A stretch of 35,080 nt of DNA from Chitinophagales bacterium. GTDB taxonomy: Bacteria > Bacteroidota > Bacteroidia > Chitinophagales > UBA2359. A program made the translations under genes and the position numbers. Where the stretch lies: positions 1 to 35,080 of the forward strand of contig JBGCDY010000154.1 of assembly GCA_045105835.1 (NCBI GenBank), written 5' to 3'. Below the pieces are notes generated by a model. It saw only the letters and a program-made list of their open reading frames with translations, was not told the origin of the DNA and did not search any database. Positions 765 to 21,660 of the stretch are shown here, piece by piece (the first letter of the stretch is position 1; every line of letters starts with the position of its first letter).

Positions 765-821
765 ATTTTTTACTATTTTGTATGATTATGTATTGGTGAA
801 CATTCTTGATTTAAGATAGTT

Positions 822-1535
822 CTATGCCCCATTCTCTGAGGATTCAAGCATTTCAATTAATAGTTGATTCAGATTTTTGACCGCCAGCGGAATATTCCAA
901 TTTGCCTTATTCCGCACTTCCACATAGTTAGAAATCGCTCGCAATTCTACAAAATCTTGTTTCGACATCAGACAAGTATAAAAAAACGCTCCTCCTTCCA
1001 TACTCTCAATATCGGGATTAAATATTTTTTTTGCTTCGTCAATGGAACTTTTTTTACCCAATACTCTGTTAACCGTTATTGAAGAAACACCAGTCATTTT
1101 TTTCAATATTGGAAATAACACAATACTTTTCCTGATTGCTTTTTCTTCTCCACTAAACAACTTTCCATCTTGATAAGGAAACTGGTTTTCATCAAAAAAA
1201 ACCATCTCTGCAATAGGAATAAAGGAATCTTTGTCTTCAGCTCCCAAGTCTCCAAAAACTTGAGAACGTACACGAACAATTTCTCCTATATTCAGTTTTT
1301 TATTAAAGCTACCTGCAATCCCTACATTGATTGCCAAATCGTAGTTTTTTTGAAATAATACACGGCTAAGGTGAAAAGTAGTATGAACCATTCCTGCACC
1401 TGTTATCAATACTTCAATATCAAAATGACGGTATTGAAATTGAGAGTGACCTTGTGTCGGCTCCTCCGCTAAGCCTAAGTATTGCAGCAAGGGAGCAATT
1501 TCGCCATAAGTAGCAGCAACCAATAATATTTTCAT
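822..1535 (-). CDS. mqnB: futalosine hydrolase (MqnB; PNP/UDP-phosphorylase fold)
   Basis: 237-aa ORF with MKILLVAATYGEI, ITGAGMVHTT, ESMEGGAFFY and LRAISNYVEVRNKANW blocks, as in futalosine nucleosidases. It is adjacent to mqnD. Confidence 0.8.
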   Translation of the reverse strand: MKILLVAATYGEIAPLLQYLGLAEEPTQGHSQFQYRHFDIEVLITGAGMVHTTFHLSRVLFQKNYDLAINVGIAGSFNKKLNIGEIVRVRSQVFGDLGAEDKDSFIPIAEMVFFDENQFPYQDGKLFSGEEKAIRKSIVLFPILKKMTGVSSITVNRVLGKKSSIDEAKKIFNPDIESMEGGAFFYTCLMSKQDFVELRAISNYVEVRNKANWNIPLAVKNLNQLLIEMLESSENGA

Positions 1536-1649
1536 TCTTTAATACATTTTACAAACTCCTAATTTAGAACCTCCACCTATTTTAATGCTTTTTAAAATAG
1601 TGTGTGTGATTATTACGCAACATAGCAATTATTTCGGACTGAATATTAC

Positions 1650-1657
1650 TATCTTTG
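1650..1657 (+). promoter_or_regulatory. candidate Bacteroidota -7 promoter box (TATCTTTG = TAnnTTTG)
   Basis: Exact match to TAnnTTTG 18 nt upstream of the ATG at 1675. No convincing TTTG -33 element at the expected spacing. Confidence 0.35.
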
Positions 1658-1674
1658 CACAAAGAATCAATAGT

Positions 1675-2091
1675 ATGGTTTATTTGACGAGAAGGGAACG
1701 GTTCAATTCCGCACATAAACTGTATAATCCCAATTGGGATCAAACAAAAAATGAGGAAGTTTTTGGCAAATGTTCCAATGAAAATTGGCACGGTCATAAC
1801 TATCATTTATATGTTACAGTAAAAGGAAGACCGGACCCTCAGACAGGCTTTATTATCAACGTGAAGACACTAAGTGTCATTATACGTGAACGAGTTATCG
1901 AAAAAGTGGATCACCGAAACCTCAACTTAGATGTAGATTTCTTGCAAGGTGTGATTCCCTCTACCGAAAACTTCGCCAAAGCAATATGGCACGAATTGGC
2001 TTTTCTTATTGAAGAGCATGGCTGTCAATTGCATTGTGTAAAACTGACTGAAACGGAAAACATCTATGTAGAATATTTTGGAGAACAATAA
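1675..2091 (+). CDS. 6-pyruvoyl-tetrahydropterin synthase family protein (PTPS/QueD fold)
   Basis: The ORF-track frame 1585-2091 includes an implausible hydrophobic leader. The internal ATG at 1675 gives MVYLTRRERFNSAHKLYNP..., the usual family N-terminus. It carries the GKCSNENWHGHNY (C-x5-HGH) catalytic and zinc motif, and a -7 box sits just upstream of 1675. Confidence 0.85.
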   Translation: MVYLTRRERFNSAHKLYNPNWDQTKNEEVFGKCSNENWHGHNYHLYVTVKGRPDPQTGFIINVKTLSVIIRERVIEKVDHRNLNLDVDFLQGVIPSTENFAKAIWHELAFLIEEHGCQLHCVKLTETENIYVEYFGEQ

Positions 2092-2129
2092 GATTACAAT
2101 TCTGGAAAACCTTAAATTATCACATTACA

Positions 2130-3002
2130 ATGAAGGCGTTTATCTTTTCAGGGCAAGGCTCGCAGGTCGTAGGTATGGGCAAAACTCTTTGCGATTTGTC
2201 TGGTACTTCTATGGAATATTTAGAAATAGCCGATGACATACTCGGTTATAAGCTGAGTGACCTTATGTTTGAAGGAACAAAGGCAGAGCTGAAACAAACA
2301 AGAATTACTCAACCCGCTGTATTCGTTTACTCGGTCATCAAAGCTCGTATTACTCGTGACTTCAAACCCGATATGGTAGCAGGTCATTCTCTTGGAGAAT
2401 TTTCTGCTCTTTCGGCTATTAGAGCCATCAAATACGCAGATGCACTTCGATTGGTCGCCAAACGTGCTGAATTGATGCAGGCTGCATGTGATGCAACTCC
2501 TTCTACAATGGCAGCTGTATTGGGTTTAGACGATGCTATCGTTGAGAGCATTTGTGCAAGTATCGAAGAAATAGTGGTTCCAGCTAACTACAACTACCCT
2601 GGTCAGTTAGTTATTTCTGGTACATTGAAGGGCATCGAAATCGCTGCTGAAAAGCTCAAAGAGGCGGGTGCACGTAATGTTCTCAAATTGAAAGTAGGTG
2701 GGGCATTCCATTCTCCTGTGATGGAATCTGCAAAAATGGAACTCGCGAGAGCCATTGAAGAAACTCCTTTTAAAGAACCTCCTTGTCCTATTTACCAAAA
2801 TGTAACAGGTAAACCAACACAAGATCCTGAAGAAATCAAACAGAACTTGATTGCTCATTTGACTTCTCCTGTAAGGTGGACACAAACCATCGAAAATATG
2901 GTGGAAGACGAGGCTCGTACTTTTATTGAAGTAGGTCCAAGACCTGTTTTGAAAAACATGGTAAAAAAGATTAACGATCGTATTTCGGCAGAAGTCCTGT
3001 AA
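2130..3002 (+). CDS. fabD: malonyl-CoA:ACP transacylase
   Basis: 290 aa with FSGQGSQ, active-site GHSLGEFSAL, GAFHSP and TSPVRW motifs. Confidence 0.95.
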   Translation: MKAFIFSGQGSQVVGMGKTLCDLSGTSMEYLEIADDILGYKLSDLMFEGTKAELKQTRITQPAVFVYSVIKARITRDFKPDMVAGHSLGEFSALSAIRAIKYADALRLVAKRAELMQAACDATPSTMAAVLGLDDAIVESICASIEEIVVPANYNYPGQLVISGTLKGIEIAAEKLKEAGARNVLKLKVGGAFHSPVMESAKMELARAIEETPFKEPPCPIYQNVTGKPTQDPEEIKQNLIAHLTSPVRWTQTIENMVEDEARTFIEVGPRPVLKNMVKKINDRISAEVL

Positions 3003-3044
3003 TATTGCAGACAAGTGATTTTTGAGGTAATCCTCTAACACAAC

Positions 3045-3084
3045 AAAAAACGCCAATCATTATTTCTAATGATTGGCGTTTTTC
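3045..3084. terminator. bidirectional rho-independent terminator between convergent fabD and the IYD-like gene
   Basis: Perfect 12-bp stem cgccaatcatta (3051-3062) / taatgattggcg (3067-3078) with a 4-nt loop. It is flanked by A6 (3045-3050) and T5 (3079-3083). Confidence 0.75.
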
Positions 3085-3115
3085 TTTGTCCAAATACTTC
3101 AAACATTCTTCTTTT

Positions 3116-3784
3116 TTATTCAAAAAACACACTCACCTCCTCCAGTTCCTTGCGCTGCAAATCAGGCACGACTGTTTCCTCCGCAGGATATCCCACAGGA
3201 ATCAACAAAAAAGGTTTCTCGTTTTTGGGTCGCTTCAATATGTTCGCCAAAAAATTCATCGGACTCGGTGTATGTGTCAATGCCACAAGCCCAGCTTGAT
3301 GTATTGCAGTGAGCAAAAAACCTGTAGCAATCCCCACAGATTCCGACACATAGTAATTGGTTTTTCGGCTTCCATCCTCGCCAAAATCATATATTTTCCT
3401 AAAAACCACAATCACCCAGGGAGCTATGTCAATAAAAGGTTTGTTCCAATCTGTATCAAATGCCTGCAAATCTTCCAACCATTCTTCCGACATACGCCCA
3501 TGATAATTGGTATGTTCCTCTTCTTCCGCAGCTTTTCTGATAACGCTTTTGAGTTCAGGATTACTGATTACACAAAACGTCCAGGGCTGTTTGTGCGCAC
3601 CCGAAGGAGCAGAAGACGCACTCATAATGATGTTTTCCATCACTTCCTTAGGCACTGATTTGTCCGAAAAAGTTCTGACCGTCCGACGATTGTCAAGCCA
3701 ATTTCTAAACTCTTGACTTCTTTGAGTCATTTCTTCCGCTTCGTAAGTATCACGTTTGTAGGGTATAAATTCGTTGGTGTTCAT
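3116..3784 (-). CDS. iodotyrosine deiodinase-like (halotyrosine dehalogenase) FMN nitroreductase-superfamily protein
   Basis: The 222-aa ORF aligns end to end with remembered animal IYD catalytic domains: RSQEF..L..RR(T/S)VR, APSGAH.(Q/E)PWTF, EEEE..NY, (D/N)W.K, YY..ES(V/I), AGLV..T.TP, LL.PVGYP....VPDL.RK. The IYD-specific Glu/Tyr/Lys lid triad appears conserved (EEEEHTNY, DWNKPF). Confidence 0.85.
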   Translation of the reverse strand: MNTNEFIPYKRDTYEAEEMTQRSQEFRNWLDNRRTVRTFSDKSVPKEVMENIIMSASSAPSGAHKQPWTFCVISNPELKSVIRKAAEEEEHTNYHGRMSEEWLEDLQAFDTDWNKPFIDIAPWVIVVFRKIYDFGEDGSRKTNYYVSESVGIATGFLLTAIHQAGLVALTHTPSPMNFLANILKRPKNEKPFLLIPVGYPAEETVVPDLQRKELEEVSVFFE

Positions 3785-3795
3785 TTTGTTTGTTT

Positions 3796-5904
3796 TTAAT
3801 CCATCAAATCCACTGCTTTGCTCACCTCTTCAACAGGAAATTTGCACACCTTGTTTTGGCAGACATAAATACGGGTTTGCCCTTCCACCAATTTACTTTT
3901 GAGCAATTCCAAAGTACCTTCTTCCTTTCCTCCCAATAGAAAAGCATGGGGTAAGAAATGTTCGTCCATCTCTACCCGTTTCGCTGCAAAATTATCTCCC
4001 ACAATCGCTACTTCATAAGGTGTTTTTACAAAATGCGTCATCAAAGTCCCCCAATTGGAATAAAAAGGAGCCTGCATTTTTACATCCTCTTTCACGTTGG
4101 TCAACATCTGTTCTGACATTTTTAAGTAATCCTCCTGATTGAAGTAAGTACCCAAATAGAACAAAGCTTTTGCCATGGAAGAATTGGAACTTGGAATCAC
4201 ATTGTCAGTGATTTCCATTTTTCGAGCAATCAAAGCTGCATCCTGATCTGATGTGTAAAAGAACATTTTGGAATTGTCATCGTGAAAATGAGCAATGGCA
4301 TATTCTGCCAAGTCTTTGGATTTGTAGAGCCATTGTTCGTCAAAAGTGGCTTGGTATAAACCGACGAAAGCTTCAATGAGCAAAGAATAATCATCCAAAA
4401 AAGCATTGATGGAAGATTTGCCGTCCTTGTAATTTCGATTCAACCTATTGTCACTTTGCAGCGCATTTTTGACCAGAAAATTGGCGTTCTTCAAAGCAAT
4501 GTCTAAAAACTCCTGCTCTCCAAATACTCGGTAAGCATCCACATAGCCCTTCAACATCAGCGCATTCCATCCCGTCAAAACCTTATCATCCAAAGGAGGG
4601 CGCACTCTTTTGTCACGAGCCGCCATCAATTTCACTTTTGAATCTGCCAACACTTGATTCAGTTGCTGCAATGGGATAGCTAATTTTGAAGTAACCGTCT
4701 TTTTATCTTTCAATACCCGCAATACATTTTTGTGTTCCTCCCAATTTCCCTTTGGAGTCACATTGTAGTAAGCTCCAAAAATCGTCGCATCTTGCTTACC
4801 CAAAATCGAGTCAATCTCCGCTTTTGTCCACACATAAAATTTTCCTTCCTCCCCTTCGCTATCCGCATCCAAAGAAGAATAAAAACCACCTTCGGGAGAG
4901 GTCAATTCTCGTTTCACAAACTCCAATGTTTCGTAAACTTTCTGTTTGTAAAGTGGATTCGCTTCATATTGATAGGCTTCGGAGTACAAACTCACCAACT
5001 GCCCATTGTCATACAGCATTTTTTCAAAGTGTGGAACATGCCAGTCAGGGTCAGTAGAATAACGAGCAAAACCGCCTCCCAAATGATCGTAAATCCCACC
5101 ATTTGCCATAGATTCGAGCGTGACATTCACCGCCTTCAAAGCATCTTCATTTCCAAAAAGGCTGTGATAACGAAGCAGGTACGCCCAATTAGAAGGCATC
5201 GGAAATTTATTCGACTTAGTAGTTTTTCCTCCCTTTTTATAATCCAATAGGGATTTCCAAGTTTTGAAAATTTCGTCCAAATCCTCTTCCACAAAAGTTG
5301 CCGCTTCGGGTTGAAAAGGTACCATTTCGATTTGTTGGATTCCTTCGGTGATTTTTTCAGCTTGAGTCTCCAGTTCCGCCAAATCGTTCTCGTACTTATC
5401 TGCAAAATAATCGAGGATTTTCGTCCAATTGTCTTTCGGAAAGTAGGTTCCTGCAAAAATAGGGCGGCCATCAGGTAAAGCTATCGCATTCAGGGGCCAG
5501 CCTCCACTTCCATTGATCATATAAGCAGCATTCATGTAGATTTGATCCACATCAGGACGCTCTTCTCGATCTACTTTGATGCACACAAAGTTTTCATTCA
5601 TCTTCCGAGCCACTAAAGTATCCTCAAATGACTCATGCTCCATTACATGACACCAATGACAGGCAGCATATCCCACACTGATAATCAGCATTTTGTTTTC
5701 TGCTTTTGCCTTCGCCAAAGCTTCCTCTCCCCATGGAAACCAGTCCACGGGATTGTGGGCATGTTGCAGCAAATAGGGGCTGCTTTCATTGATAAGGTGA
5801 TTGGTGTATTGGTGATCGGTATGACTGTGTTCTCCTTGCTTTTGTGCTTTGCACGAAAAAAGCAATAAGGAAGCCACAAAAAAAGTAAATATTTTTTGGT
5901 ACAT
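3796..5904 (-). CDS. thioredoxin-domain protein, DUF255/YyaL (SPATA20-like) family, probable lipoprotein
   Basis: 702 aa. The N-terminal signal with LLFSC looks like a lipobox. It has [21 protein letters not shown] and [18 protein letters not shown] (thioredoxin-like CxxC) followed by an alpha/alpha-toroid-like region ([17 protein letters not shown]). Confidence 0.85.
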
Positions 5905-5994
5905 TAGTTTAACTTTTGTTAAGGAACGCTAAGTTAAAATTTTCTGTTGTAGCTATTGACAAACATCTTTTTTATCTAATAAAAAATCAACAAA

Positions 5995-6249
5995 ATGAAT
6001 AGTATTGTATTTCTTATCGTAGGTGCTGTCGCTGGATGGCTTGCAAATCTTTGGATGAAAGGTGCAAGCATGGGCTTGGGCTGGAACTTACTTTTGGGTA
6101 TTGGTGGTGCCTTTGTTGGCAGCTTCGTATTGGGTATTGTAGGCTTCAATGCCTCTCACCTTATAGGCGAAATTGTCACGGCTACCTTTGGTGCAGTATT
6201 GCTGTTGTATGCGATACCTAAAATCAAGGCAGCAAATAAAAATAAATAG
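5995..6249 (+). CDS. GlsB/YeaQ/YmgE (transglycosylase-associated) family small membrane protein
   Basis: 84 aa with three Gly-rich transmembrane segments: IVGAVAGWLAN...LLGIGGAFVGSFVLG... Confidence 0.8.
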   Translation: MNSIVFLIVGAVAGWLANLWMKGASMGLGWNLLLGIGGAFVGSFVLGIVGFNASHLIGEIVTATFGAVLLLYAIPKIKAANKNK

Positions 6250-6288
6250 CCTTTCGGTTTCTATTAATTATCAAGCTTCCGCATTGAT

Positions 6289-6390
6289 TTACTCTTGCTT
6301 GTTTCCAAGCGTTTCACTGATTGCAGTCTCGGTACTCCGAAGTTTCTGCTGACAAAACTGTATCAATTCGGAAGCTCTTTTTACTTTTTC
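6289..6390 (-). pseudogene. orphan duplicate of the 3' end of xseB (34 codons including stop)
   Basis: In the xseB frame it reads EKVKRASELIQFCQQKLRSTETAISETLGNKQE*. Positions 6301-6390 are identical to xseB 7136-7225. No start codon or 5' part is present, and its upstream end is overlapped by the DUF429 stop codon. Confidence 0.65.
6301..6390. repeat. 90-bp perfect direct repeat, copy 1 (partner 7136-7225)
   Basis: Base-by-base comparison: gtttccaagcgtttcactgattgcagtctcggtactccgaagtttctgctgacaaaactgtatcaattcggaagctctttttactttttc is identical in both copies. Similarity decays within about 18 nt on the low-coordinate side and stops abruptly on the high-coordinate side. Confidence 0.97.
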
Positions 6391-7100
6391 ATTTTGAAAT
6401 AGCCAATTCTCATTTTGATTCCCATTTCATCTTCAATTAATGAGTCTTCAATAAAACTCATTTTTTTTTCTCCACTTAGTCTATTAACAACACACAAACA
6501 GATTGAGTCCACAATATCATCTCTTTTGACAAATTTTCTTTTGGTATTATTTACTACTTCCTCATACAAATTGATTGCATTTGGATAATAACCTTGCAGG
6601 ATTTTTAATCTTTCTTCAATTCCAAGTTGAGATGATTTCTTACTCAAAAGAATCTCTCCATTTAGATACTTAAAACAGATTTCAGGATGACTTTCAATAA
6701 ATTTATTTTTTAAAGAAGAATTATTTTTTAGAAAACCATCTATTTCGGCGATTTTCTTTGAAATGAAGAAGGTTTGTATAGATATTTTCTTCCCTTCAAT
6801 CCTTTCGTTTATCTGCTTCGCTTCATCGTAGTCTTTTGCTCTTAGTGCTTCTCTACACAGCGCATTGAAAACTGTTGAATGCCTCACACCAAGCTCTTTT
6901 TTCATCGCAGACTCAACGGTTCTTTTCATTTTTTTGGAACTTAAACCCATGGGCATATCAATCAAAATTCGGTCTAAATCCCGATGCTCTGCCATCAAAT
7001 TATCTATGGATTTGAACAATCCTCCAAACTGAATCTCTTCCCCATTGGATTTCATCAAAATCCACCCATATTTACATCCGTCAATTCCTCCGTATATCAT
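6381..7100 (-). CDS. DUF429-family protein (predicted RNase H-fold nuclease)
   Basis: 239 aa with MIYGGIDGCKYGW, ILIDMPMGL, ESHPEICFKYLNG...SKKSSQLGIEERLKIL and DDIVDSICLCVV, matching the remembered DUF429 block pattern. The gene is visibly AT-richer than its neighbours. Confidence 0.8.
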   Translation of the reverse strand: MIYGGIDGCKYGWILMKSNGEEIQFGGLFKSIDNLMAEHRDLDRILIDMPMGLSSKKMKRTVESAMKKELGVRHSTVFNALCREALRAKDYDEAKQINERIEGKKISIQTFFISKKIAEIDGFLKNNSSLKNKFIESHPEICFKYLNGEILLSKKSSQLGIEERLKILQGYYPNAINLYEEVVNNTKRKFVKRDDIVDSICLCVVNRLSGEKKMSFIEDSLIEDEMGIKMRIGYFKMKK

Positions 7101-7120
7101 CTTATTTTTTACTTAACGCT

Positions 7121-7339
7121 CTATACTTCTTGACTGTTTCCAAGCGTTTCACTGATTGCAGTCTCGGTACTCCGAAGTTTCTGCTGACAAAACTGTATCA
7201 ATTCGGAAGCTCTTTTTACTTTTTCGGATAGTTCATCTACACCGATACTTTCGTTTTCGAGATCGACTACGATTTGTTGAAGTTCGGTAAGGGATTTATT
7301 GTAGGTGGTCATATTGATTTTATTTAGTGTAGGGTTCAC
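7121..7339 (-). CDS. xseB: exodeoxyribonuclease VII small subunit
   Basis: 72 aa. The pattern LTELQQIVVDLENESIGVDELSEKVKRASELIQFCQQKL fits XseB. An alternative ATG at 7310-7312 (63 aa) would remove the 20-nt overlap with the upstream ORF. No xseA lies in the window. Confidence 0.8.
   Translation of the reverse strand: MNPTLNKINMTTYNKSLTELQQIVVDLENESIGVDELSEKVKRASELIQFCQQKLRSTETAISETLGNSQEV
7136..7225. repeat. 90-bp perfect direct repeat, copy 2 (inside the xseB coding sequence)
   Basis: Identical to 6301-6390. It encodes residues EKVKRASELIQFCQQKLRSTETAISETLGN of XseB. Confidence 0.97.
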
Positions 7340-7577
7340 AAATTACCCAAGCTTTTTCTATTGAAGTTTTACAGTTTTTCAAATTACCAGAACAGTCTTC
7401 GAGTTGTTTTGCCAATTTAATCCTCCCCCTGCCTTTATCTTTCTCTCCATCTCTTTCAATTTTTGCAGCAAGCAAGTCTAAAAATCCTGCTAAAGCATTG
7501 TATTTCAAATTGCCAATTTCTTCAACTAAGGCTTCCATTGAACCATTGTAACCTTCAACCTGTGATTTGTGTACCAT
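7320..7577 (-). CDS. hypothetical helical protein (85 aa)
   Basis: ATG-initiated ORF tightly spaced between the thioesterase and xseB. It has a helical heptad-like composition (EALVEEIGNLKYNALAGFLDLLAAKIERDG...IEKAWVICEP). No family was recognised with confidence. Confidence 0.5.
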   Translation of the reverse strand: MVHKSQVEGYNGSMEALVEEIGNLKYNALAGFLDLLAAKIERDGEKDKGRGRIKLAKQLEDCSGNLKNCKTSIEKAWVICEPYTK

Positions 7578-7589
7578 ATTTGTATCAAG

Positions 7590-8006
7590 TCAATATAAAA
7601 TCAGTTGTGTACAAGAAAAGACGGCAATCTTCTTTTTGGTTTCTTTCCGCCTCACTTCTACCCTCCAAACGTGTGTCGTCCTTCCCAAATGCTCTACAAA
7701 ACTTTCTCCCTCCAAAACACCCTCCCTTGCAGCTCCTAAAAGATTGCTTTTGAGTTCGATCGTCGTAAAGGATTTTGCTTTTTCGGGCAAATGCAAAACC
7801 GTTGAATAACCTGCAATGGTATCTGCAAAAGTGATGATGCTCCCTGCATGTAAAAAACCATTTGGTGCAAAAAGTTCTTTTTTGACTGGCATTTCTGCAA
7901 GCATTTTGCCTTCTTCAATTTGGGTGATGGTGATTCCTAAAGAAGCGGGAAAAGTTCCTTTACTCATTTGGTTGAAGTGAGTGGGGTTTAGTTTTTTGTG
8001 GAACAT
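7590..8006 (-). CDS. PaaI/YdiI-type hotdog-fold thioesterase
   Basis: 138 aa with NGFLHAGSIITFADTIAGY and GRTTHVWRVEV blocks typical of PaaI-family acyl-CoA thioesterases. It ends in TGA. Confidence 0.85.
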   Translation of the reverse strand: MFHKKLNPTHFNQMSKGTFPASLGITITQIEEGKMLAEMPVKKELFAPNGFLHAGSIITFADTIAGYSTVLHLPEKAKSFTTIELKSNLLGAAREGVLEGESFVEHLGRTTHVWRVEVRRKETKKKIAVFSCTQLILY

Positions 8007-8040
8007 GGAGTACTACATTATTGATTTTAGGGATTTTATG

Positions 8041-8754
8041 TTATCGCCAATAATTAAGAAAGGAATACTTTATTTTAGAAAACTGTTTTTCAATAAATTC
8101 CCATAAAGAAATATTTCGGGGATATCCTTTTACCGAAGCATGTAATTCATTTAAAACTTCCTCTTTAGGTTTTTCCCATTGCGTTGAAAGTTCGTCAATG
8201 AGTTCATCACTAAATGTAGCCTGAACAGGTTCGCTTCCTCCAAATATGGCTTCATTTTCTTTGAAGGAACCTAATGCTTCCTCATAACTCACCTTTCCTT
8301 CTATTTTGACAATACAATCCGTTATACCTAAAAAATTTGCAGCAAAGTGTTTCGTTCCTGTTTCAATTGTAGAAAGATCAATGCGCTCATCAGGGTGCCA
8401 AATATCTATAAAACAAGGTTTTATTCCTTTATCATTTTTAGGGGCATTGTAAGGAACTTCATAAAACTCTTCAGAATCCATAGGTTCTGAAGTATAATAA
8501 AACCAGTAATGGCATTTATCGTCAGCTAAGTATTTTTCAATCGCCAGTACGAACTCTTTCTCTTTTGGGTTATTTTTCAAGTCTTCTAATGATGGTCTCA
8601 TGTGAGACTTTGTATTCAGACATCCACTACCAATACGTTCACCATCCTCATAAAAGAATTCTATATCCTCCCAAAGTGACTTATAAGATATACCATAAAT
8701 CCCCCACCATAAATCATATGAGATAGTTTTGACTATAATTGTCACCTTTTCCAT
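8041..8754 (-). CDS. hypothetical protein (237 aa, acidic, Trp/Tyr-rich)
   Basis: Long ATG-initiated ORF 18 nt downstream of the sbcD stop and 34 nt upstream of the thioesterase start. No signal peptide, transmembrane segment or recognisable motif. It is markedly AT-rich. Confidence 0.6.
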   Translation of the reverse strand: MEKVTIIVKTISYDLWWGIYGISYKSLWEDIEFFYEDGERIGSGCLNTKSHMRPSLEDLKNNPKEKEFVLAIEKYLADDKCHYWFYYTSEPMDSEEFYEVPYNAPKNDKGIKPCFIDIWHPDERIDLSTIETGTKHFAANFLGITDCIVKIEGKVSYEEALGSFKENEAIFGGSEPVQATFSDELIDELSTQWEKPKEEVLNELHASVKGYPRNISLWEFIEKQFSKIKYSFLNYWR

Positions 8755-8772
8755 TCTATAAAGTTTTTCATA

Positions 8773-9990
8773 TCAATCCTTCTCTTCCTCCATCCACTCC
8801 AACAACTCATTAAAGGTATTCACCAATTCTTTTTGCTGCTTCCCTCCTACATTGCGGCTGTCGCAACGCTTCAAAAACACCTCCATCGGCTTCAAATCAT
8901 CCAAACTCACATTCCCCATTTCTTCGTCCAAACCTTTGATACGGTGTTTGTATTCAGTGCGGGTAATCAACACCTCTGCATTTTTGTCCGCCACAAATTG
9001 TCGAACCTGATGCTCTAAATCTGCCTCAAAAGTTTCCAATTCGATTTGAACCTCCAACCAAGTCGTTGGTTTGCCTTCAAAACTATCTAAAGCCAACAAT
9101 TTTTCAGTCACTTTTTCCATGTTCCCTTTTACTCGCAGTAGTTTTCGGTAATTGGGAATGGGCAAAACACGAATACCTGATAGTTTTCCTTCATTGAAGT
9201 CTATCAAAAGAGCCTGTTTGTCGTCTTTGTATTCTGTAAAACTCAATGGGATGGGTGAACCGCAATAACGAATGTGTTCTAATTTATTGACCAGTTGCGG
9301 CTTGTGAATATGCCCCAATGCCACGTAATCAAACATTTCTGAAAACGTTTCGGCAGTTACTTTGCCTTGATTCCCTATGTGAATGTCTTTTTCGCTGTCG
9401 GAGGTCATACTGCCTGCTGCAAATAAATGCCCTGTAGCAATGATGGGCAATTTTGAAGTGTCGTATTTTGCAGCGATGTATTCGGCTATGGTATGGTAGT
9501 GGTTGAAAATACCTTTTTGGGTTCGCTCTACTCTTTCCTTATAACTTTCTCCTGCAACAGCCTTACGGATGTCTCTTTCCTGCAAAAAAGGAACAGCTGC
9601 TACTACGCCAATTACATTGTCATTCTTGTCTTTTACTTCAATCACTTCCTCTTTCAAATCCTCAGGACAACCACCAACTACATGTACTTGAAGGTACTCC
9701 AAGAGTTCTTTGGGAGCATCCAAATTGCGTGGGGAATCGTGATTGCCGCCTGTAATGATGATGTTGTTGCAGTAGCTGATTGCTTTTCGTAAGAAATTGT
9801 AATACTGTTTTCGGGCGTAGTTTGGCGGATTGTGGACATCAAATACATCTCCTGCCACCACCAAAGCATCTACTTTTTCTTCCTTCAAGGTATCCAACAA
9901 CCATTGTAGAAAATGGTCATGCTCTTCTTGTCGGTCAAAATCACACAATCGCTGCCCTAAATGCCAATCGGCGGTATGGAGAATTTTCAT
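8773..9990 (-). CDS. sbcD: exonuclease SbcCD, nuclease subunit D (Mre11-like)
   Basis: 405 aa with the calcineurin-like phosphoesterase motifs HTADWHLG, VVAGDVFD, GGNHDS, GHLF and LGHIHKPQ plus a C-terminal SbcD_C-like region. It ends in TGA. Confidence 0.9.
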   Translation of the reverse strand: MKILHTADWHLGQRLCDFDRQEEHDHFLQWLLDTLKEEKVDALVVAGDVFDVHNPPNYARKQYYNFLRKAISYCNNIIITGGNHDSPRNLDAPKELLEYLQVHVVGGCPEDLKEEVIEVKDKNDNVIGVVAAVPFLQERDIRKAVAGESYKERVERTQKGIFNHYHTIAEYIAAKYDTSKLPIIATGHLFAAGSMTSDSEKDIHIGNQGKVTAETFSEMFDYVALGHIHKPQLVNKLEHIRYCGSPIPLSFTEYKDDKQALLIDFNEGKLSGIRVLPIPNYRKLLRVKGNMEKVTEKLLALDSFEGKPTTWLEVQIELETFEADLEHQVRQFVADKNAEVLITRTEYKHRIKGLDEEMGNVSLDDLKPMEVFLKRCDSRNVGGKQQKELVNTFNELLEWMEEEKD

Positions 9991-9994
9991 GTTT

Positions 9995-10033
9995 ATTGTT
10001 AAATGGTTTTATGGTTCTATTGCTAAATTGTTG
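9995..10033. repeat. left arm of imperfect inverted repeat flanking the four-helix-bundle gene
   Basis: attgttaaatggttttatggttctattgctaaattgttg matches the reverse complement of 10462-10500 at 33 of 39 positions by hand alignment. The outer 12-mer ATTGTTAAATGG is exact. Related 12-mers occur at 10019-10030 and 10027-10038. Confidence 0.75.
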
Positions 10034-10052
10034 AATGGCTGTACTTTTGGTT

Positions 10053-10436
10053 CTATATTTTCAATTTATCATTCGTATATTTGATCAGGATGTTTATGGA
10101 TTTGGGAAGTTTTTGGAGTTCTGTTGTGATGTACTCCTTCTCTTCCTTCGTAATCAATTTTCTAATGATTGCCTTTCTTGTCCAATCCAAACTTTCTTGA
10201 AGTGAGCCTGTGCTGTAGCGATAAAATTTAATTTTATCTTTTTTATGGTAACGACCAAATCCTTCTGCAATATTTGCAGAGATAGAATCGATTGCAGTTA
10301 CATACTGCTTACCAACCGTCCATTGAGCAAATTTATCCCACCTCATCACTATTTCCCACACATAGTTGCTAAGTTTGAAAGATATCATATATGCTTCAAT
10401 CCTATCTAAACCCAAATATCGTTTGTCATTAGACAT
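10053..10436 (-). CDS. four-helix-bundle protein (23S rRNA intervening-sequence protein / Avd-like family)
   Basis: 127 aa with AYMISFKLSNYVWEIV, SISANIAEGFGRYHKKDKIKFYRYSTGSLQESLDW, the characteristic blocks of this family. Confidence 0.85.
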   Translation of the reverse strand: MSNDKRYLGLDRIEAYMISFKLSNYVWEIVMRWDKFAQWTVGKQYVTAIDSISANIAEGFGRYHKKDKIKFYRYSTGSLQESLDWTRKAIIRKLITKEEKEYITTELQKLPKSINILIKYTNDKLKI

Positions 10437-10461
10437 AAATCCAGTTAATTAACTGCCACAA

Positions 10462-10500
10462 CAACCATTTGACAATAAAACCATATAGCCATTTAACAAT
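10462..10500. repeat. right arm of imperfect inverted repeat flanking the four-helix-bundle gene
   Basis: The reverse complement attgttaaatggctatatggttttattgtcaaatggttg pairs with 9995-10033. It contains ccatttaacaat (10489-10500) and ccatttgacaat (10465-10476). Confidence 0.75.
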
Positions 10501-10506
10501 TAGAAT

Positions 10507-11895
10507 TTATTCTTCTACCTCTTCCTCCATCATTTCCTCATCAATGATTTCTTCCTCTTCTTCTTGGAGTAATTCTGTTGGAGGAGCTTGTTTGGAAATG
10601 CTGTGCTTGGCAACGATTTCACTCCAATTTGGAAGTGCATTGTAGTGCCATTTGTCCACTACGATTCCATCTTTGATTAAGACGACACCAGGATTTGCAC
10701 GAATCATCGTTTTGATAGGTACGGCATCCAAGTTATAGAACTTATAGAGATTGTCAGTGAATTTTTGGGCGTGGTCTAATATTGAAGCAGTCAAACCTAT
10801 AACGGGAACATTGTCTCCAAGGGCTTCTTTCATTACCTGATTTACCTTCACAAATCCTTTTTCCACATTTGCTTTGTCAATATTGTAGGCTCCTACAAAT
10901 ATGGTGAATCCTGGGCGGGCTAAAATAGCTTCTGCTACTTCATTGTCTCCATCATCATAAATCACAAAATCTTTGATAGTTGCGGATTTACCTTCTTCGA
11001 GCGTTACCTGTTCGGTTTTTTCATTGTCCAAAACCCATGTTTTGTCTTTCCAAATACCACTGTCAATATATTCCTGGCTCTCAACTTTTTTCACTTCGCC
11101 ACTCCCCTCTTTGACAAGTGTGTACATGGTCTGTACTTTGGGAGGAATTCCATCATTTCGTCCATCAATCAAATTGGCTCCTACTTTGTAAGCTCTGAAG
11201 TCAACGATTGGCAAGTTGTTCACATTTCGCATACTGAATAAAAGTGATGCGACACCCAGTACGCCTAAAATAATCCATGACATTTTTTTGTTGAAAACCA
11301 ATTTGATATGCCCCGATAAGAAGTACATCAAAAATATCAAGGCTGTCAAGACTACATCTTTCAAGAAGGATTCATAGGGTTTGAGCTTTACGAAATCACC
11401 AAAACAACCGCAATCGGTTACTCGCATATTAGAATCTTTGAAGCTTTCCCACTGTGCAAACTGAAAGAAGGTCGCATCTTTTGGTACATACCCTGTTAGG
11501 TAAGTGAAGCCTGTCAGTACTGTAAAAAACAGGGTGAGTCCTATATATAGCCACAAAGTGGTTTTTCGGAATGTTCCCAAAATGAGGGAAATACCCAGTA
11601 CAATCTCCAAAATTATCATGAAAATAGATAGAGGTAATGCGATTCCTATTAGGAGTTCCCACAAACCTGTGAACAAAGAAAAATGTTCTGTAAATACATT
11701 GAAGTAATCTTCTATTTTGATGGCTGTTCCTGTTGGGTCTATCGCTTTGATGATACCCGAAAAAACAAAGAATGTTCCCAAAAAACTGCGTAGATAGTGT
11801 ATCAACCAATTTTCAGGCTTGCTGAGAAGTCCTGTGATGATGGTAACACCTACTGCCAAAAGGGCAATCAATCCGATAAGTGAAAATATAGTCAT
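10507..11895 (-). CDS. MauE/DoxX-family integral membrane protein fused to a thioredoxin-like C-terminal domain with a poly-acidic tail
   Basis: 462 aa with about 5-6 transmembrane helices, a TDCGCFGDF motif (MauE/DoxX-type) and a soluble alpha/beta C-terminal half. It ends QEEEEEIIDEEMMEEEVEE. Confidence 0.65.
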   Translation of the reverse strand: MTIFSLIGLIALLAVGVTIITGLLSKPENWLIHYLRSFLGTFFVFSGIIKAIDPTGTAIKIEDYFNVFTEHFSLFTGLWELLIGIALPLSIFMIILEIVLGISLILGTFRKTTLWLYIGLTLFFTVLTGFTYLTGYVPKDATFFQFAQWESFKDSNMRVTDCGCFGDFVKLKPYESFLKDVVLTALIFLMYFLSGHIKLVFNKKMSWIILGVLGVASLLFSMRNVNNLPIVDFRAYKVGANLIDGRNDGIPPKVQTMYTLVKEGSGEVKKVESQEYIDSGIWKDKTWVLDNEKTEQVTLEEGKSATIKDFVIYDDGDNEVAEAILARPGFTIFVGAYNIDKANVEKGFVKVNQVMKEALGDNVPVIGLTASILDHAQKFTDNLYKFYNLDAVPIKTMIRANPGVVLIKDGIVVDKWHYNALPNWSEIVAKHSISKQAPPTELLQEEEEEIIDEEMMEEEVEE

Positions 11896-11923
11896 GGTAA
11901 TACGTGTTTTGATTTCTGCTACA

Positions 11924-11931
11924 CAAATATA
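11924..11931 (-). promoter_or_regulatory. candidate -7 box (TATATTTG) for the MauE/DoxX gene
   Basis: Reverse complement of caaatata. It matches TAnnTTTG about 28 nt upstream of the ATG at 11895. Confidence 0.3.
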
Positions 11932-12050
11932 GTATTAAGTCAAGAATGAAAATTAAAATGCAAGTGAAAATTGAAAAATATAAGGATTCTTGGTGACTTA
12001 TGCCCTGAAAACTCACAAACTATTTTTAACTTTCGGTTTTGCAGCATTCT

Positions 12051-12058
12051 TACTTTTG
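12051..12058 (+). promoter_or_regulatory. candidate -7 box (TACTTTTG) for folP-cdaA-recO
   Basis: Matches TAnnTTTG 53 nt upstream of the folP ATG. The nearest TTTG (12038-12041) is too close to be a canonical -33 element. Confidence 0.3.
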
Positions 12059-12110
12059 CAAATATACACTAAATAAATAAATCAACTAAATTTTTAGTTG
12101 AAGATTAAAG

Positions 12111-12974
12111 ATGAATTCAAAAAATACTTTTTTCAATACGAGCTGGCAAATCAACTGCCGAGGTAAGCTATTAGATTTGAGTACGCCAAAGGTAATGGGG
12201 GTCTTAAATGTAACACCTGATTCTTTTTATGATGGAGGAAAATATACTCAAGATATCGTCATATTGAAGCAGGCTGAAAAGATGCTACAAGATGGGGCTG
12301 CAATTATTGATGTTGGTGGCATGTCTTCAAAACCTGGGGCTTCTATTATTGAAGTGGATGTCGAATTGCTGCGGGTTGTTCCTGTTATTAAAGCCATTGT
12401 AAAAAGGTTTCCTGATGCGATTGTTTCTATTGATACCATTCGTGCAAAAGTAGCAAAGGAGGCTGTTGAAGCTGGAGCAAGTATCGTAAATGATATTTCG
12501 GCAGGTGGTTTGGATACTGATTTACTGGAGACTGTGGGTGCATTGAACGTTCCTTACATACTGATGCACATGCAGGGCAAGCCTAAAGATATGCAATTGG
12601 ATCCTTCGTATGAAAATGTGGTTCAGGATATGATTGATTTTTTCACGGATAAGCTCGAAAGCGTGAAACAGGCTGGTATTAAGGATATTGTAATCGACCC
12701 TGGATTTGGTTTTGGAAAAACGCTTTCGCAAAACTATCAAATATTACAGCAATTTGACGCTTTTCGATTATTTGACTTACCTTTATTGGCAGGAATGTCT
12801 CGCAAGTCCATGATTTGTAAACTTTTGGATGTTTCACCTTCAAGGGCACTGAATGGAACAACAGCGGCAAATATGGTTGCGCTACAAAAAGGGGCGAACA
12901 TTTTGCGGGTGCATGATGTAAAGGAGGCAATGGAGGCTGTGAAGATGGCAGAATATTTGAAAAACCCAATTTAA
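12111..12974 (+). CDS. folP: dihydropteroate synthase
   Basis: 287 aa with GVLNVTPDSFYDGG, IIDVGG.SSKPG, SIDT, NDISAG, PGFGFGKT and LRVHDV motifs. Confidence 0.95.
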   Translation: MNSKNTFFNTSWQINCRGKLLDLSTPKVMGVLNVTPDSFYDGGKYTQDIVILKQAEKMLQDGAAIIDVGGMSSKPGASIIEVDVELLRVVPVIKAIVKRFPDAIVSIDTIRAKVAKEAVEAGASIVNDISAGGLDTDLLETVGALNVPYILMHMQGKPKDMQLDPSYENVVQDMIDFFTDKLESVKQAGIKDIVIDPGFGFGKTLSQNYQILQQFDAFRLFDLPLLAGMSRKSMICKLLDVSPSRALNGTTAANMVALQKGANILRVHDVKEAMEAVKMAEYLKNPI

Positions 12975-12986
12975 TAAAAGTAGATT

Positions 12987-13790
12987 TTGACACTTTTCTT
13001 ATTCAAGATAGGATTTCTCGAAATTGGCTTTGCTGATGTATTGGATATATTGGTATTGACGATTTTGTTCTTTTTTGTATATCGTTTGCTAAAAGGAAGC
13101 CTCGCCTTCAATATTTTTGTCGGTTTGTTGGTTCTATCCTTGATTTACTTCATCGTTCAAGCATTGGAGATGAAGATGATGGAGCAAATTTTGGGTCAGT
13201 TTTTGGGTGCTGGGCTGGTTTTGCTTGTAATCATTTTCCAGCCAGAAATCCGTAGATTTTTGTTTTTTTTGGGGCGCAATACAGGGATTGGAGACCAAAA
13301 ATTTTGGAATCGCTTGATTAAAAGAAGTCGTGAAAAAAAGTCTGATAATGAATACTTGGTAAATGCCATTGCAAGGGCTTTGCAAAATATGGCTCGCACA
13401 AAAACGGGTGCATTAATGGTATTTACCGATGTTGGTGAGGAGAAATTTTTTGCAAATACGGGTGTGCCCATTCATGGTGATATTTCGAGTAAGTTGATTG
13501 AATCAATCTTTGATAAGAGTGCTCCTCTTCACGACGGAGCTATGGTGATTGCGGATGGTAAAATATTGGCTGCTGGCTGTGTTTTGCCTGTTTCGGAAAA
13601 TCCAGAACTTCCAAATCGTGTGGGAATGCGCCATCGGGCAGCGGTAGGAATTACGGAAAACATTGAAGCCCATGTTTTTATTGTATCTGAAGAAAGAGGC
13701 AAGATATCTTATGCTTATCGCAGCAATATCAAAATGAATATTTCAGGTGCAACCTTGAAGGAACTCCTCCGAAAAGCATTGGAATTGTAA
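12987..13790 (+). CDS. cdaA: diadenylate cyclase (c-di-AMP synthase), membrane-anchored CdaA type
   Basis: 267 aa with three N-terminal transmembrane helices, then a DisA_N domain (TGALMVF, APLHDGAMVI, GMRHRAAVGITE, VSEERGKIS). It has a TTG start (an in-frame TAG lies 6 nt upstream and there is no ATG alternative). It follows folP as in other Bacteroidota. Confidence 0.9.
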   Translation: MTLFLFKIGFLEIGFADVLDILVLTILFFFVYRLLKGSLAFNIFVGLLVLSLIYFIVQALEMKMMEQILGQFLGAGLVLLVIIFQPEIRRFLFFLGRNTGIGDQKFWNRLIKRSREKKSDNEYLVNAIARALQNMARTKTGALMVFTDVGEEKFFANTGVPIHGDISSKLIESIFDKSAPLHDGAMVIADGKILAAGCVLPVSENPELPNRVGMRHRAAVGITENIEAHVFIVSEERGKISYAYRSNIKMNISGATLKELLRKALEL

Positions 13791-13814
13791 GTAATTGATA
13801 AATAATGAGTTGAT

Positions 13815-14549
13815 ATGCTTCACTCTATTAAGGGGATTGTCTTAAAAACTTTTAAATATTCCGAATCCAGTGTAGTTGCTAAAATTTATACAGATCAATT
13901 TGGGATTCAATCCTATATGATTAACGGCGTTCGGACAAGTAGTAAGAGTAAACATAAGGCAGGTTTGCTTCAACCTCTTACCTTGTTGGATATGGTGGTT
14001 TATTATCGAAAGAATCGCAGTATGCAGCGCATTAAGGAGATGAAACCAACAAGAACATTTACTTCAATTCCTTTTGACATTGGTAAAAGTTCGCTTGCTT
14101 TGTTTGTGACAGAATTACTTTATTCAACTTTGAAAGAGGAAGAGGAAAACAAACGTCAGTTTGACTTTATTTCTGAGTTTGTACAAAATCTAGATGATAC
14201 TACTGAATCTATTGCCAATTTGCACCTCTATTTTTTACTACAACTCAGTGGTTTTCTTGGATTTTATCCTTTCAGCAACTACGATAAAGAGAGGCGAAAT
14301 ATTTTTGATTTACAAAACGGTTCTTTTTCTTCAAATCGTCCAATGCACCCTTATTACCTTCAAGATCCCTTGTCAAAACATCTTACCTCCTTATTAAACT
14401 CTCCGCTGGAAGAGCTTCATTTAATAAAAATCAACAAGGTATATCGCAAAGAATTATTGACTGCTTTATTACAGTTTTACACCTTGCATATTGAAGGTTT
14501 TAGACCATTGAAGTCTGTTAAGATTTTGCAAGAAGTATTTGGTTTTTGA
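13815..14549 (+). CDS. recO: DNA repair protein RecO
   Basis: 244 aa. The N-terminal OB-fold pattern is GIVLKTFKYSESSVVAKIYTDQFGIQSYMINGVR. It ends in TGA. Confidence 0.9.
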   Translation: MLHSIKGIVLKTFKYSESSVVAKIYTDQFGIQSYMINGVRTSSKSKHKAGLLQPLTLLDMVVYYRKNRSMQRIKEMKPTRTFTSIPFDIGKSSLALFVTELLYSTLKEEEENKRQFDFISEFVQNLDDTTESIANLHLYFLLQLSGFLGFYPFSNYDKERRNIFDLQNGSFSSNRPMHPYYLQDPLSKHLTSLLNSPLEELHLIKINKVYRKELLTALLQFYTLHIEGFRPLKSVKILQEVFGF

Positions 14550-14602
14550 GGCAAATTATTTCTCAGCACTCAAGAGGGAACTGATAACCAATTATTTAAA
14601 GC

Positions 14603-14641
14603 AAAAAACCCAAGTTCAAACTTATTGAACTTGGGTTTTTG
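14603..14641. terminator. bidirectional rho-independent terminator between convergent recO and infB
   Basis: 11-bp stem cccaagttcaa (14609-14619) / ttgaacttggg (14625-14635), flanked by A6 and T5. Confidence 0.8.
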
Positions 14642-14676
14642 TTTAGCTTATAAAGCTGAAATATGAATCGTTTCTG

Positions 14677-20661: not shown

Positions 20662-21660
20662 CTATTCTTCGTCGAGTTTATATTTACTCAAGTCCATTCC
20701 AAAAGAAAGTCCTTTTTCTTGAATTAGATGTTCTATTTCCATCAAGGACTTCTTTCCAAAATTTCTAAACTTTATCAATGAGCTAGTATCGTAAGTAACT
20801 AATTCTTGTAAAGTATTAATTTTAGCTGCTTTCAAACAGTTATAAGCTCTTACAGAAAGATCTAAGTCTTCTAATGGAGTTTTTAATAGCTTACGCATAT
20901 GTAATATATGTTCATCTACTATATCATCCTCTTCACCTGGTTTCTCATCAAAAGTAATCTTCTCATCAGTAATCAACATCAAATGCTGGATAAGGATTCG
21001 TGCAGATTCTTTTATTGCATCTTCAGGATGAATTGTTCCATCTGTCTTAATCTCTATAATAAGCTTCTCATAATCCGTTCTTTGCTCAACACGAGTACTT
21101 TCTACATTGTATCGAACATTTTTAATTGGAGTGAAAATAGCATCAATTGGAATCAAACCATGAACCATATCCTTCGGCTTATTATCCTCTGCAGGAACAT
21201 AACCCCTTCCTTTTTGTACAGTTAATTCAATATCCAAATTAACAAAAGACTCCATGTGACATATCACTAAATTAGGATTTGTTATCTTAAAGGTAGCAGT
21301 ATGTTTTTCAATATCTCCAGCCTCAAATTTATCCTCACCGCTTATAGACACAAATATTTTTTCTGATGTCAGATCATCATCTTTTATTATTTTCTTAAAT
21401 CTAACTTGTTTAAGATTTAAAATGATTTCTGTGACATCTTCAATAACTCCTGTTATTGTAGAAAATTCATGGTCTACACCGCTTATTTTAATTGCAGTAA
21501 TAGCATATCCTTCTAAGGAAGACAAAAGAACCCTTCTAATAGAATTACCAACAGTGACACCAAATCCTGGCTCTAATGGTTTGAATTCAAAAAGCCCTTC
21601 ATTATCTGTAATTTTATGCGCTACAATTTTATCTGGCTGATGAAATGTTAAAAGTCCCAT
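20662..21660 (-). CDS. rpoA: DNA-directed RNA polymerase subunit alpha
   Basis: 332 aa with GNSIRRVLLSSLEG, the insert and dimerisation domains, and a C-terminal domain containing LDLSVRAYNCLK. Confidence 0.97.
   Translation of the reverse strand: MGLLTFHQPDKIVAHKITDNEGLFEFKPLEPGFGVTVGNSIRRVLLSSLEGYAITAIKISGVDHEFSTITGVIEDVTEIILNLKQVRFKKIIKDDDLTSEKIFVSISGEDKFEAGDIEKHTATFKITNPNLVICHMESFVNLDIELTVQKGRGYVPAEDNKPKDMVHGLIPIDAIFTPIKNVRYNVESTRVEQRTDYEKLIIEIKTDGTIHPEDAIKESARILIQHLMLITDEKITFDEKPGEEDDIVDEHILHMRKLLKTPLEDLDLSVRAYNCLKAAKINTLQELVTYDTSSLIKFRNFGKKSLMEIEHLIQEKGLSFGMDLSKYKLDEE

Follow-up and report, generated by a model that had tools for sequence, protein, structure and literature searches.

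A DUF429 gene bracketed by copies of the xseB 3' end in a Chitinophagales-like lineage: an apparent old recombination scar

Displaced gene ends are known from loci for Rhs, contact-dependent inhibition (CDI), and type VI secretion system (T6SS) proteins. Homology-facilitated illegitimate recombination, a documented process (PMC3240628), has been proposed as the origin of the strings of displaced 'orphan' 3' ends found in Rhs and T6SS effector loci (PMC5361080). Direct repeats around inserted genes are also a mark of cis-mobilizable elements, which are decayed integrative elements with attL and attR sites but no integrase (PMC5704250). Here we analyze a locus that resembles both in part. In a 35,080-nt stretch of DNA from a Chitinophagales bacterium (contig JBGCDY010000154.1, assembly GCA_045105835.1; referred to in full as the window), a gene of the DUF429 family lies directly behind xseB, which encodes the small subunit of exonuclease VII, and is followed by a second, start-less copy of the xseB 3' end, which we call the stub. 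DUF429 proteins belong to the RNase H-like superfamily, in clade D with RuvC/YqgF (Majorek et al. 2014, PMC3985635). The original prediction, made from the letters of the window, was that the gene might form a minimal selfish cassette whose own product is the nuclease or recombinase. Our analysis indicates that the arrangement looks like an ordinary old recombination scar and not like a new type of self-moving gene. What remains of the prediction is an old, well-preserved scar whose repeat copies have evolved in concert and which surrounds a member of a known and biochemically little-studied nuclease family.

As in the Rhs, CDI, and T6SS loci (PMC3240628, PMC5361080), the locus would have been formed with a homology anchor on one side and a microhomology join on the other, the resident 3' end would have been displaced downstream as a start-less stub, and a block of homology is common to it and to the new end. 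However, the 3' ends in those loci differ from each other and encode different toxins, whereas here the displaced and new ends are nearly alike and xseB has no relationship to the gene that was added. With cis-mobilizable elements the locus shares direct repeats that take in the 3' end of the targeted gene, the lack of a recombinase gene inside the unit, and the existence of empty sites. In contrast to them, xseB is not known to host a cognate element with an integrase, the open reading frame (ORF) of the cargo contains one of the junctions, the repeats enclose a single gene, and over a long divergence the unit has remained stable.

The duplicated xseB end and its history in relatives

A repeat search of the window found one family of direct repeats at the locus (98 nt, 98% identity with 2 mismatches, 6293-6390 and 7128-7225, spacing 835), and no terminal inverted repeats bracketing the unit. 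The inner 90 nt are identical between 6301-6390 and 7136-7225, as the original prediction had stated. The best direct match between the two flanks of the DUF429 gene scores 177 bits, against a 95th percentile of 23.8 bits in controls (n=136 placements of a pseudo-gene in other loci), which excludes chance as the source of the repeat. One DUF429 gene lies between the copies, and xseB, DUF429, and the stub are all on the minus strand (Table 1). The description of the parts also held up. Matches to PF02609 (E 3.8e-13) and TIGR01280 (49.2 bits vs a cut-off of 35) confirm that copy 2 is the 3' end of an intact xseB, which is 90% identical to the xseB of relatives. Copy 1 reads EKVKRASELIQFCQQKLRSTETAISETLGNKQE followed by a stop in the xseB frame, ends in the tail GNKQE, and has no ATG, GTG, or TTG in frame back to the preceding upstream stop, as expected of a start-less remnant. 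Among 701 homologs, no XseB protein carries this tail. The size of the single DUF429 gene, its distance from the xseB stop, and the location of its own stop within copy 1 were likewise as predicted.

The closest homolog of the DUF429 protein (P0002, 80% identical) is encoded on contig CAYGVB010000004.1 of assembly GCA_964353105.1, at a locus that we designate L001. There the order is SbcD, a restriction-modification pair, thioesterase, xseB, DUF429, stub, Transgly_assoc, and DUF255. The duplication in L001 spans 107 nt at 93% identity (4035-4141 vs 4895-5001, the latter being the stub), the leader between the xseB stop at 4134 and the DUF429 start at 4183 is 48 nt long, and the DUF429 gene is 82% identical in nucleotide sequence to that of the window. 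Because this assembly, from an independent project, shows the duplication too and differs from the window in its sequence, the repeat in the window is not an assembly artefact. Mis-joined reads, which the metagenome-type contig of the window might bring to mind, are therefore a practically negligible explanation.

Empty sites, with a single xseB 3' end and no DUF429 gene, were located through xseB homologs in four related lineages (L084-L088, L089-L091, L173, and L182), the first of which includes a 2.4-Mb contig from a Chitinophagales metagenome-assembled genome. Such sites had been proposed as a check on the original prediction, and their presence supports an insertion. In three of the four lineages, xseB is followed after 2-12 nt by a convergent Transgly_assoc gene of 79 aa (TgA1), then by its paralog TgA2, and then by DUF255; among the empty-site lineages, other genes can also stand behind xseB. 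The 84-aa Transgly_assoc gene of the window is 86% identical to the 83-aa gene of L084 (TgA2) vs 58% to the 79-aa gene (TgA1), and is therefore the TgA2 ortholog. It follows that DUF429 and the stub stand where TgA1 is found in the empty-site relatives, and that TgA1 is missing from the clade of the window and L001. The spacer between the stub and TgA2 has no recognizable homology to the TgA1-TgA2 spacers of the empty-site relatives, so the end-points of a TgA1 deletion cannot be placed. Comparison of the spacer with L001 assigns its first ~13 nt (ATCAATGCGG...) to the ancestral duplicated unit. A separate scan of a genome collection with the 702-aa DUF255 neighbor gave a best relative of 62% identity, and synteny was kept at no locus.

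The identity of SbcD to that of the window falls from L001 (92%) through L084 (88%) and L090 (87%) to L173 (77%), and this ranking, together with the empty sites, agrees with a single insertion in the ancestor that the window organism shares with L001; both represent an uncultured Chitinophagales-like lineage. Between the two genomes, the DUF429 gene has a synonymous divergence (dS) of 0.99, within the range of its neighbors (0.44-1.05), and a ratio of nonsynonymous to synonymous divergence (dN/dS) of 0.10. Therefore, purifying selection has acted on the gene, and it has been passed down vertically, from a time before the two genomes parted. As judged from these genome comparisons, DUF429 entered the locus a single time, in an ancestor shared by the window organism and L001.

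The two copies of the xseB end have changed together since that time. Both are 93-96% identical between the window and L001 (6301-6390 and 7136-7225 vs 4893-4982 and 4033-4122), compared with a regional mean of 86% and with 84% for the 5' half of the same xseB; when 90-nt windows are ranked by their identity between the genomes, both copies come within the highest 2.5%. The stub shows this level of identity although it has no start codon and synonymous sites differ between the two genomes by 0.5-1 substitutions per site. Three neighboring variable sites carry the derived ATCAGTGAA in each of the window copies, while the stub of L001 and the outgroup L089 have ATTGGCGAA and the intact copy of L001 has ATAGGCGAA. 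Past the motif GGAAAC, the tails are copy-specific in both genomes, with ..TCAAGAA in the intact genes and AAGCAA.. in the stubs. The presence of ATCAGTGAA in both window copies next to copy-specific tails is the expected trace of gene conversion that, in the lineage of the window, spanned the 90 nt. Such conversion would account for the 90 identical nt of the two window copies, and conversion from the selected intact copy would explain why the stub has not decayed. On this sequence evidence, the two copies have evolved in concert.

Comparison of the junctions defines what was added. The copies in L001 are homologous from GAAAAGTAAAAAG (xseB codon 30) to ~13 nt beyond the xseB stop (TAAAYCAATTYGG), where homology ends. 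Beyond these ~13 nt, the DUF429 leader and the sequence past the stub have no detectable homology (local alignment score of 9 vs 7.7 ± 1.5 for shuffles, p 0.27). Relative to L001, the intact copy of the window has a 25-nt deletion just past the repeat (window 7101-7128, L001 4120-4182; alignment columns 927-951), which took the original xseB stop and created the SQEV tail (GNSQEV-stop vs GDNQE-stop), lengthening the protein by one residue. At the other end of the insert, the nearest DUF429 homologs finish with ...TTCAAAAAATGA or TAA (F K K stop), or in a longer view ...GGNTAYTTCAAAAAATGA or TAA, whereas the window has TTCAAAAT, in the longer view ...GGCTATTTCAAAAT, and then GAAAAAGTAA. This comparison puts the right junction at an A-rich microhomology, no more than ~2 nt away from where DUF429 natively stops. 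The last two DUF429 codons and the stop (KK-stop) consist of repeat, and hence xseB, sequence read out of the xseB frame. The non-duplicated insert comprises a leader of ~37 nt (in L001) and the ORF, ~750 nt in total. With the right junction placed in the final codons of the ORF and the stop codon borrowed, the join has the look of an accident and not of the designed end of an element.

The DUF429 protein and tests of its mobility

The protein matches PF04250 with an E-value of 5.9e-45 and 154.1 bits (cut-off 23) over profile positions 1-199 of 214. It resembles other members of the family in this strong Pfam match, in being a single-domain protein of typical length, in its conserved acidic residues, and in having RuvC as its best structural match. 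It differs from part of the family in having no RelA/SpoT or NUDIX fusion partner, and its adjacency to xseB is unique to the small clade described here. Residues D7, D48, E136, H138, E140, D194, D195, and D198 are invariant in 49 DUF429 sequences. An AlphaFold2 model built with the alignment of these sequences has a mean predicted local distance difference test (pLDDT) score of 97.4. In the model, D7 is at the end of strand 3-8, D48 is just past strand 44-47, and D195 and D198 are in helix 193-209, so that the invariant residues map to strand 1, to positions just past strand 4, to others that follow strand 5, and to the C-terminal helix. Because strand 1, strand 4, and the C-terminal helix are the canonical places for acidic residues in the RNase H fold, an acidic active site in the protein is very likely, subject to the model.

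Foldseek ranks RuvC structures first among its PDB matches (6s16_B, E 0.012 and probability 0.90; 7xhj_A, probability 0.92), followed by YqgF/RuvX and the poxvirus resolvase, with all matches weak (template modeling (TM) scores of 0.3-0.5). A sequence search for a solved DUF429 structure found none. Similarity to the RuvC Holliday-junction resolvase extends to the motif DDIVDS in the C-terminal helix, which resembles D-x-x-D-A. In contrast, the RuvC match itself is weak (E ~0.01, TM 0.32-0.49, 8-12% identity), and the DUF429 protein is ~80 residues longer with an inserted helical region. We conclude that the protein has a confidently modeled RuvC/RNase H-like fold, and the RuvC-like matches and conserved acidic residues of the model support the RNase H-type fold assumed in the original prediction. 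RNase HII activity is reported, according to a citation in PMC4429107, for the DUF429 domain of M. smegmatis MSMEG_5849 (MS_RHII-RSD). The most economical role for the protein is probably that of a housekeeping or stress-related nuclease that would act on RNA/DNA hybrids or branched DNA.

Some DUF429 homologs are fused to NUDIX, isochorismatase, or RelA/SpoT domains; P0118, P0120, P0092-P0093, and P0105, for example, are proteins of 360-420 aa fused to isochorismatase (PF00857) or NUDIX (PF00293) domains. Many single-domain members bear the JGI label '8-oxo-dGTP diphosphatase', and given these fused homologs the label is probably an annotation carried over from the fusion partner.

If DUF429 proteins moved their own genes, repeats should recur around the genes elsewhere. 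A metagenome scan with the 49-sequence DUF429 alignment returned 80 loci, 55 of them with usable flanks, and flanking direct repeats were found at 0 of the 55; the best match between upstream and downstream sequence is at most 16 nt and 25.7 bits, as in the controls. The nearest homologs beyond the clade (L172 69%, L174 65%, L176 64%, L175 61%, and L002/L003 59% identical) lie after unrelated genes, which encode unknown proteins of 348 aa and 263 aa, an esterase, and ABC1. Flanking repeats are absent at L172, L174, and L175, where the flanks are complete, and at L002, where just 182 nt are available downstream; L176 has no upstream sequence. A profile search of all six-frame ORFs found xseB beside none of ~90 other DUF429 loci. 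This survey, which the original prediction had itself suggested, yielded no repeat-flanked DUF429 gene elsewhere, and the idea of a self-mobile cassette consequently fails.

The surroundings of related DUF429 genes argue in the same direction. Flanking ORFs are shared in 15/15 pairs at ≥90% identity, several of the closest being probably the same organism sampled twice, and in 13/18 pairs at 70-90%, with sharing at background level below 55%; none of the surveyed pairs combines near-identical genes with differing contexts, a combination that would mark an active element. DUF429 is also nearly absent from mobile elements. The phage collection gave 1 weak match among 50,697 records, and 5 loci were found among 2.9 million viral contigs, each of the five with 30% identity to the query. 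Plasmids gave 16 matches among 72,556, all of them on non-mobilizable replicons and mostly from haloarchaea. Majorek et al. considered the DUF429 family 'unlikely to be mobile' (PMC3985635). The negative result for mobility, across the 55 loci and the nearest relatives, agrees with that 2014 classification of the family. Together with the single old event at the window locus, these observations leave the proposal that the protein is the recombinase of a selfish cassette unsupported.

A recombinase encoded nearby is not apparent either. Pfam scans of all ORFs at 800-17100 found no integrase or transposase in the 17 kb around the site, consistent with the earlier description of the insert, and all genes in this region are core genes that are syntenic with L084. 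The xseB 3' motif, a possible attP, had no match among the viral contigs of IMG/VR, and at none of 10 related xseB loci is the 3' end of the gene occupied by other cargo or another element. The same att core was not found with integrase-bearing elements or with other cargo in the 10 xseB loci, the ~90 DUF429 loci, or IMG/VR. Folding compared with shuffled sequences gives a z of -2.6 for the stub region, through a stem formed with its own downstream tail, and a z of -0.7 for the intact copy. Thus, any attC-type or terminator-like structure in the repeat is weak and is not common to both copies.

Several named classes of mobile gene were considered and rejected. An integron gene cassette is not supported, as these folding scores reveal no attC-type palindrome and no integron integrase is nearby. 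A DDE or RuvC-type transposon or insertion sequence does not fit the absence of inverted repeats, the ~107-nt duplication, the distance to the closest homolog beyond the syntenic clade (69%), or the shared context of close pairs. A homing endonuclease gene was rejected given that PF04250 is the sole family detected and that the insertion has a 107-nt duplication. Base composition does not mark the gene as foreign. The original prediction was right that DUF429 is low in G+C (32.4%, with a 300-nt minimum of 27%, vs a window mean of 36.9%), but the flanking genes measure 40-43% instead of 40-55%, and the contrast was overstated. Core genes are equally low (for example, 31.9% at 20662-21660), and 32.4% is at the low end of, yet within, the core-gene range of the window.

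Weighing the possible origins of the arrangement

The best explanation overall, to which we assign a probability of roughly 55%, is a homology-assisted one-off acquisition behind xseB followed by vertical inheritance and gene conversion. In this process, a chromosomal DUF429 gene would have been acquired once and would have landed directly downstream of xseB, at the place where relatives carry TgA1, through an event that was not site-specific: homology-facilitated illegitimate recombination or an equivalent single-crossover. The incoming DNA would have come from a relative with the order xseB, leader, and DUF429. Homologous pairing would have occurred in or upstream of xseB, and the far end of the incoming DNA, ~2 nt from the native DUF429 stop, would have joined illegitimately at the A-rich microhomology GAAAAAG, which precedes the stop of the resident xseB by ~100 nt. 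The old xseB 3' end and ~13 nt downstream of it would have been left as a displaced stub. This model of joining yields exactly the observed order of genes and stub, with the new xseB end followed by the leader, DUF429, the old xseB end, and the old downstream sequence. Since then, the locus would have been inherited vertically under purifying selection, with the stub a dead remnant that conversion keeps xseB-like. DUF429 would probably be co-transcribed from the xseB promoter. Its product, which probably acts on RNA/DNA hybrids or branched DNA, would have been passive cargo and not the agent of its own insertion. We hold with considerable confidence that the insertion happened once and that DUF429 was its passive cargo. 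Homology-facilitated illegitimate recombination as the specific type of event, a way of joining that we infer, is a tentative proposal of somewhat less than even odds.

Several points count against this explanation. No donor-like locus with xseB and DUF429 but no stub was found, and xseB is near 0 of the ~90 other DUF429 loci. The model leaves the loss of TgA1 unexplained, and needs either a separate deletion or a recipient that already lacked TgA1. The insert hugs the ORF on both sides more tightly than expected for randomly captured DNA. Gene conversion alone predicts no slower divergence of the copies between species, and a small residue of their conservation is left over. Finally, the history is reconstructed from a small sample, as no more than two genomes with an occupied site are known.

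The arrangement could instead have originated in situ, with DUF429 simply downstream of xseB and a local rearrangement then copying the last ~110 nt of the xseB region past it. This copying could have occurred by tandem duplication between A-rich microhomologies with loss of the second DUF429, or by a template switch during repair, and no donor with xseB would be needed. Tandem duplication followed by degenerative deletion is common in bacteria. The junction has the microhomology that this route calls for, and the ~13 duplicated non-coding nucleotides past the xseB stop are clade-specific, unlike those of the empty-site relatives, so that both copies must come from the same or a very close genome. 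However, at least two to three separate events would be needed, no intermediate with two DUF429 copies or with DUF429 and no stub was found, and the tail difference common to both genomes (T in the intact copies, G in the stubs) fits two sources equally well. An origin in situ is nearly as good as the homology-facilitated route as an account of the locus, and we nonetheless regard it as unlikely. A remnant or satellite of a site-specific integrative element, similar to a cis-mobilizable element, is more doubtful still. In such a case, the two copies would be attL and attR at the xseB 3' end, the integrase would be lost or supplied in trans, and the unit might still be excisable or mobilizable by a related recombinase. 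The direct repeats, restored host gene, and empty sites match this geometry, and the neighborhood is variable, with the restriction-modification pair of L001 lying where the window has a 237-aa orphan gene. Against it stand the 17 kb without an integrase, the absence of other cargo at the xseB 3' end in the 10 related loci and of the motif from viral contigs, the right junction within the DUF429 ORF with its borrowed stop codon, and a repeat that lacks notable inverted-repeat structure. In addition, the same single gene lies between the repeats in both genomes despite a dS of ~1. The homology-assisted acquisition that we prefer, the rearrangement in situ, and the decayed element all leave DUF429 as passive cargo.

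An active role for the protein, either as the nuclease or recombinase of an 835-bp selfish cassette or as the product of a free-standing homing-type gene, is very improbable. The predicted RuvC-like fold with its conserved acidic site, an insert of almost exactly one ORF, and the unrelated contexts of the nearest homologs beyond the clade (59-69% identical) speak for such a gene. The surveys of flanks, contexts, and mobile elements described above and the judgment of Majorek et al. (PMC3985635) argue to the contrary, as do a history of one old event with vertical inheritance at a dN/dS of 0.10 and the lack of a second domain for DNA targeting or strand transfer. It is equally far-fetched that the 90-nt copies are working recombination sites of an 835-bp mobilizable cassette moved by the DUF429 nuclease or by a recombinase in trans. 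On that account, their unusual conservation between genomes would reflect selection on the sites and not conversion alone, which is improbable to the same degree. Were excision, or site-specific cleavage by the DUF429 protein, to be true, no smaller integrative unit would be known, and the DUF429 family would gain its first role as a recombinase. In a weaker variant, the stub would be translated through a -1 shift at G AAA AAG that fuses DUF429 to the C-terminal helix of XseB (+34 residues). The DUF429 end reads ATG AAA AAG TAA in the window (6381-6392, minus strand) vs ATA GAA AAG TAA in L001, and programmed frameshifting into the XseB frame of the stub was rejected since L001, with A GAA AAG, does not keep the motif. 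The locus offers a clean, datable example of a promoterless single gene added at the end of a bacterial operon, with the old end kept as a conversion-maintained stub, and a caution that a gene bracketed by repeats need not be a mobile element.

Neighboring genes

Table 1 Features of the DUF429 locus, in window coordinates.
Feature	Position	Strand	Description
Transgly_assoc gene (TgA2 ortholog)	5995-6249	plus	PF04226; 84 aa
Spacer, stub stop to convergent Transgly_assoc stop	6250-6288		
Stub, start-less copy of the xseB 3' end	6289-6390	minus	33 codons and stop, ending GNKQE-stop; repeat copy 1 is 6293-6390
DUF429 gene	6381-7100	minus	239 aa; stop at 6381-6383, inside copy 1
Leader, xseB stop to DUF429 start	7101-7120	minus	20 nt
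xseB (exonuclease VII small subunit)	7121-7312	minus	63 aa, start and stop present, ending GNSQEV-stop
Repeat copy 2	7128-7225	minus	within xseB codons 30-62; 7136-7225 identical to copy 1

An 85-aa ORF directly upstream of xseB (7320-7577, minus strand) has no match in Pfam, NCBIfam, PADLOC, or PHROGs. It is kept beside xseB in L089 and L091 (71% identical) and in L173 (65%), and is absent from L001 and L084. No xseA gene adjoins xseB in the window or in the L001, L084, L089, L091, or L173 loci.

The slot between the SbcD and thioesterase genes differs among genomes. In the window it holds a 237-aa orphan ORF (8041-8754, minus strand, 33.9% G+C) with no family match, in L001 an Eco47II-like restriction enzyme and a cytosine methylase (1332-3334), and in L084 it is empty. 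This slot lies within a few hundred bases of where DUF429 is inserted and has the appearance of a hot spot at which defense-type genes insert. PADLOC and PHROGs returned no match for DUF429, the 85-aa ORF, or the 237-aa ORF, and membership of any of the three in a defense system or phage family is without support from these databases. NCBIfam likewise has no match for the 85-aa and 237-aa ORFs, with DUF429 far below threshold (18 bits vs a cut-off of 198).

Elsewhere in the compared loci, the gene for a 23S rRNA intervening-sequence protein (PF05635) encodes 127 aa in the window (10053-10436) and in L090, and 58 aa in L084 (6078-6254), which indicates that it was probably truncated in the L084 lineage. 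L001 has an additional SEC-C-domain gene between the DUF255 and nitroreductase genes (7566-8917). Its nitroreductase matches the window protein in two overlapping pieces at differing positions and in differing frames, which suggests a frameshift or an assembly error in that region of L001.

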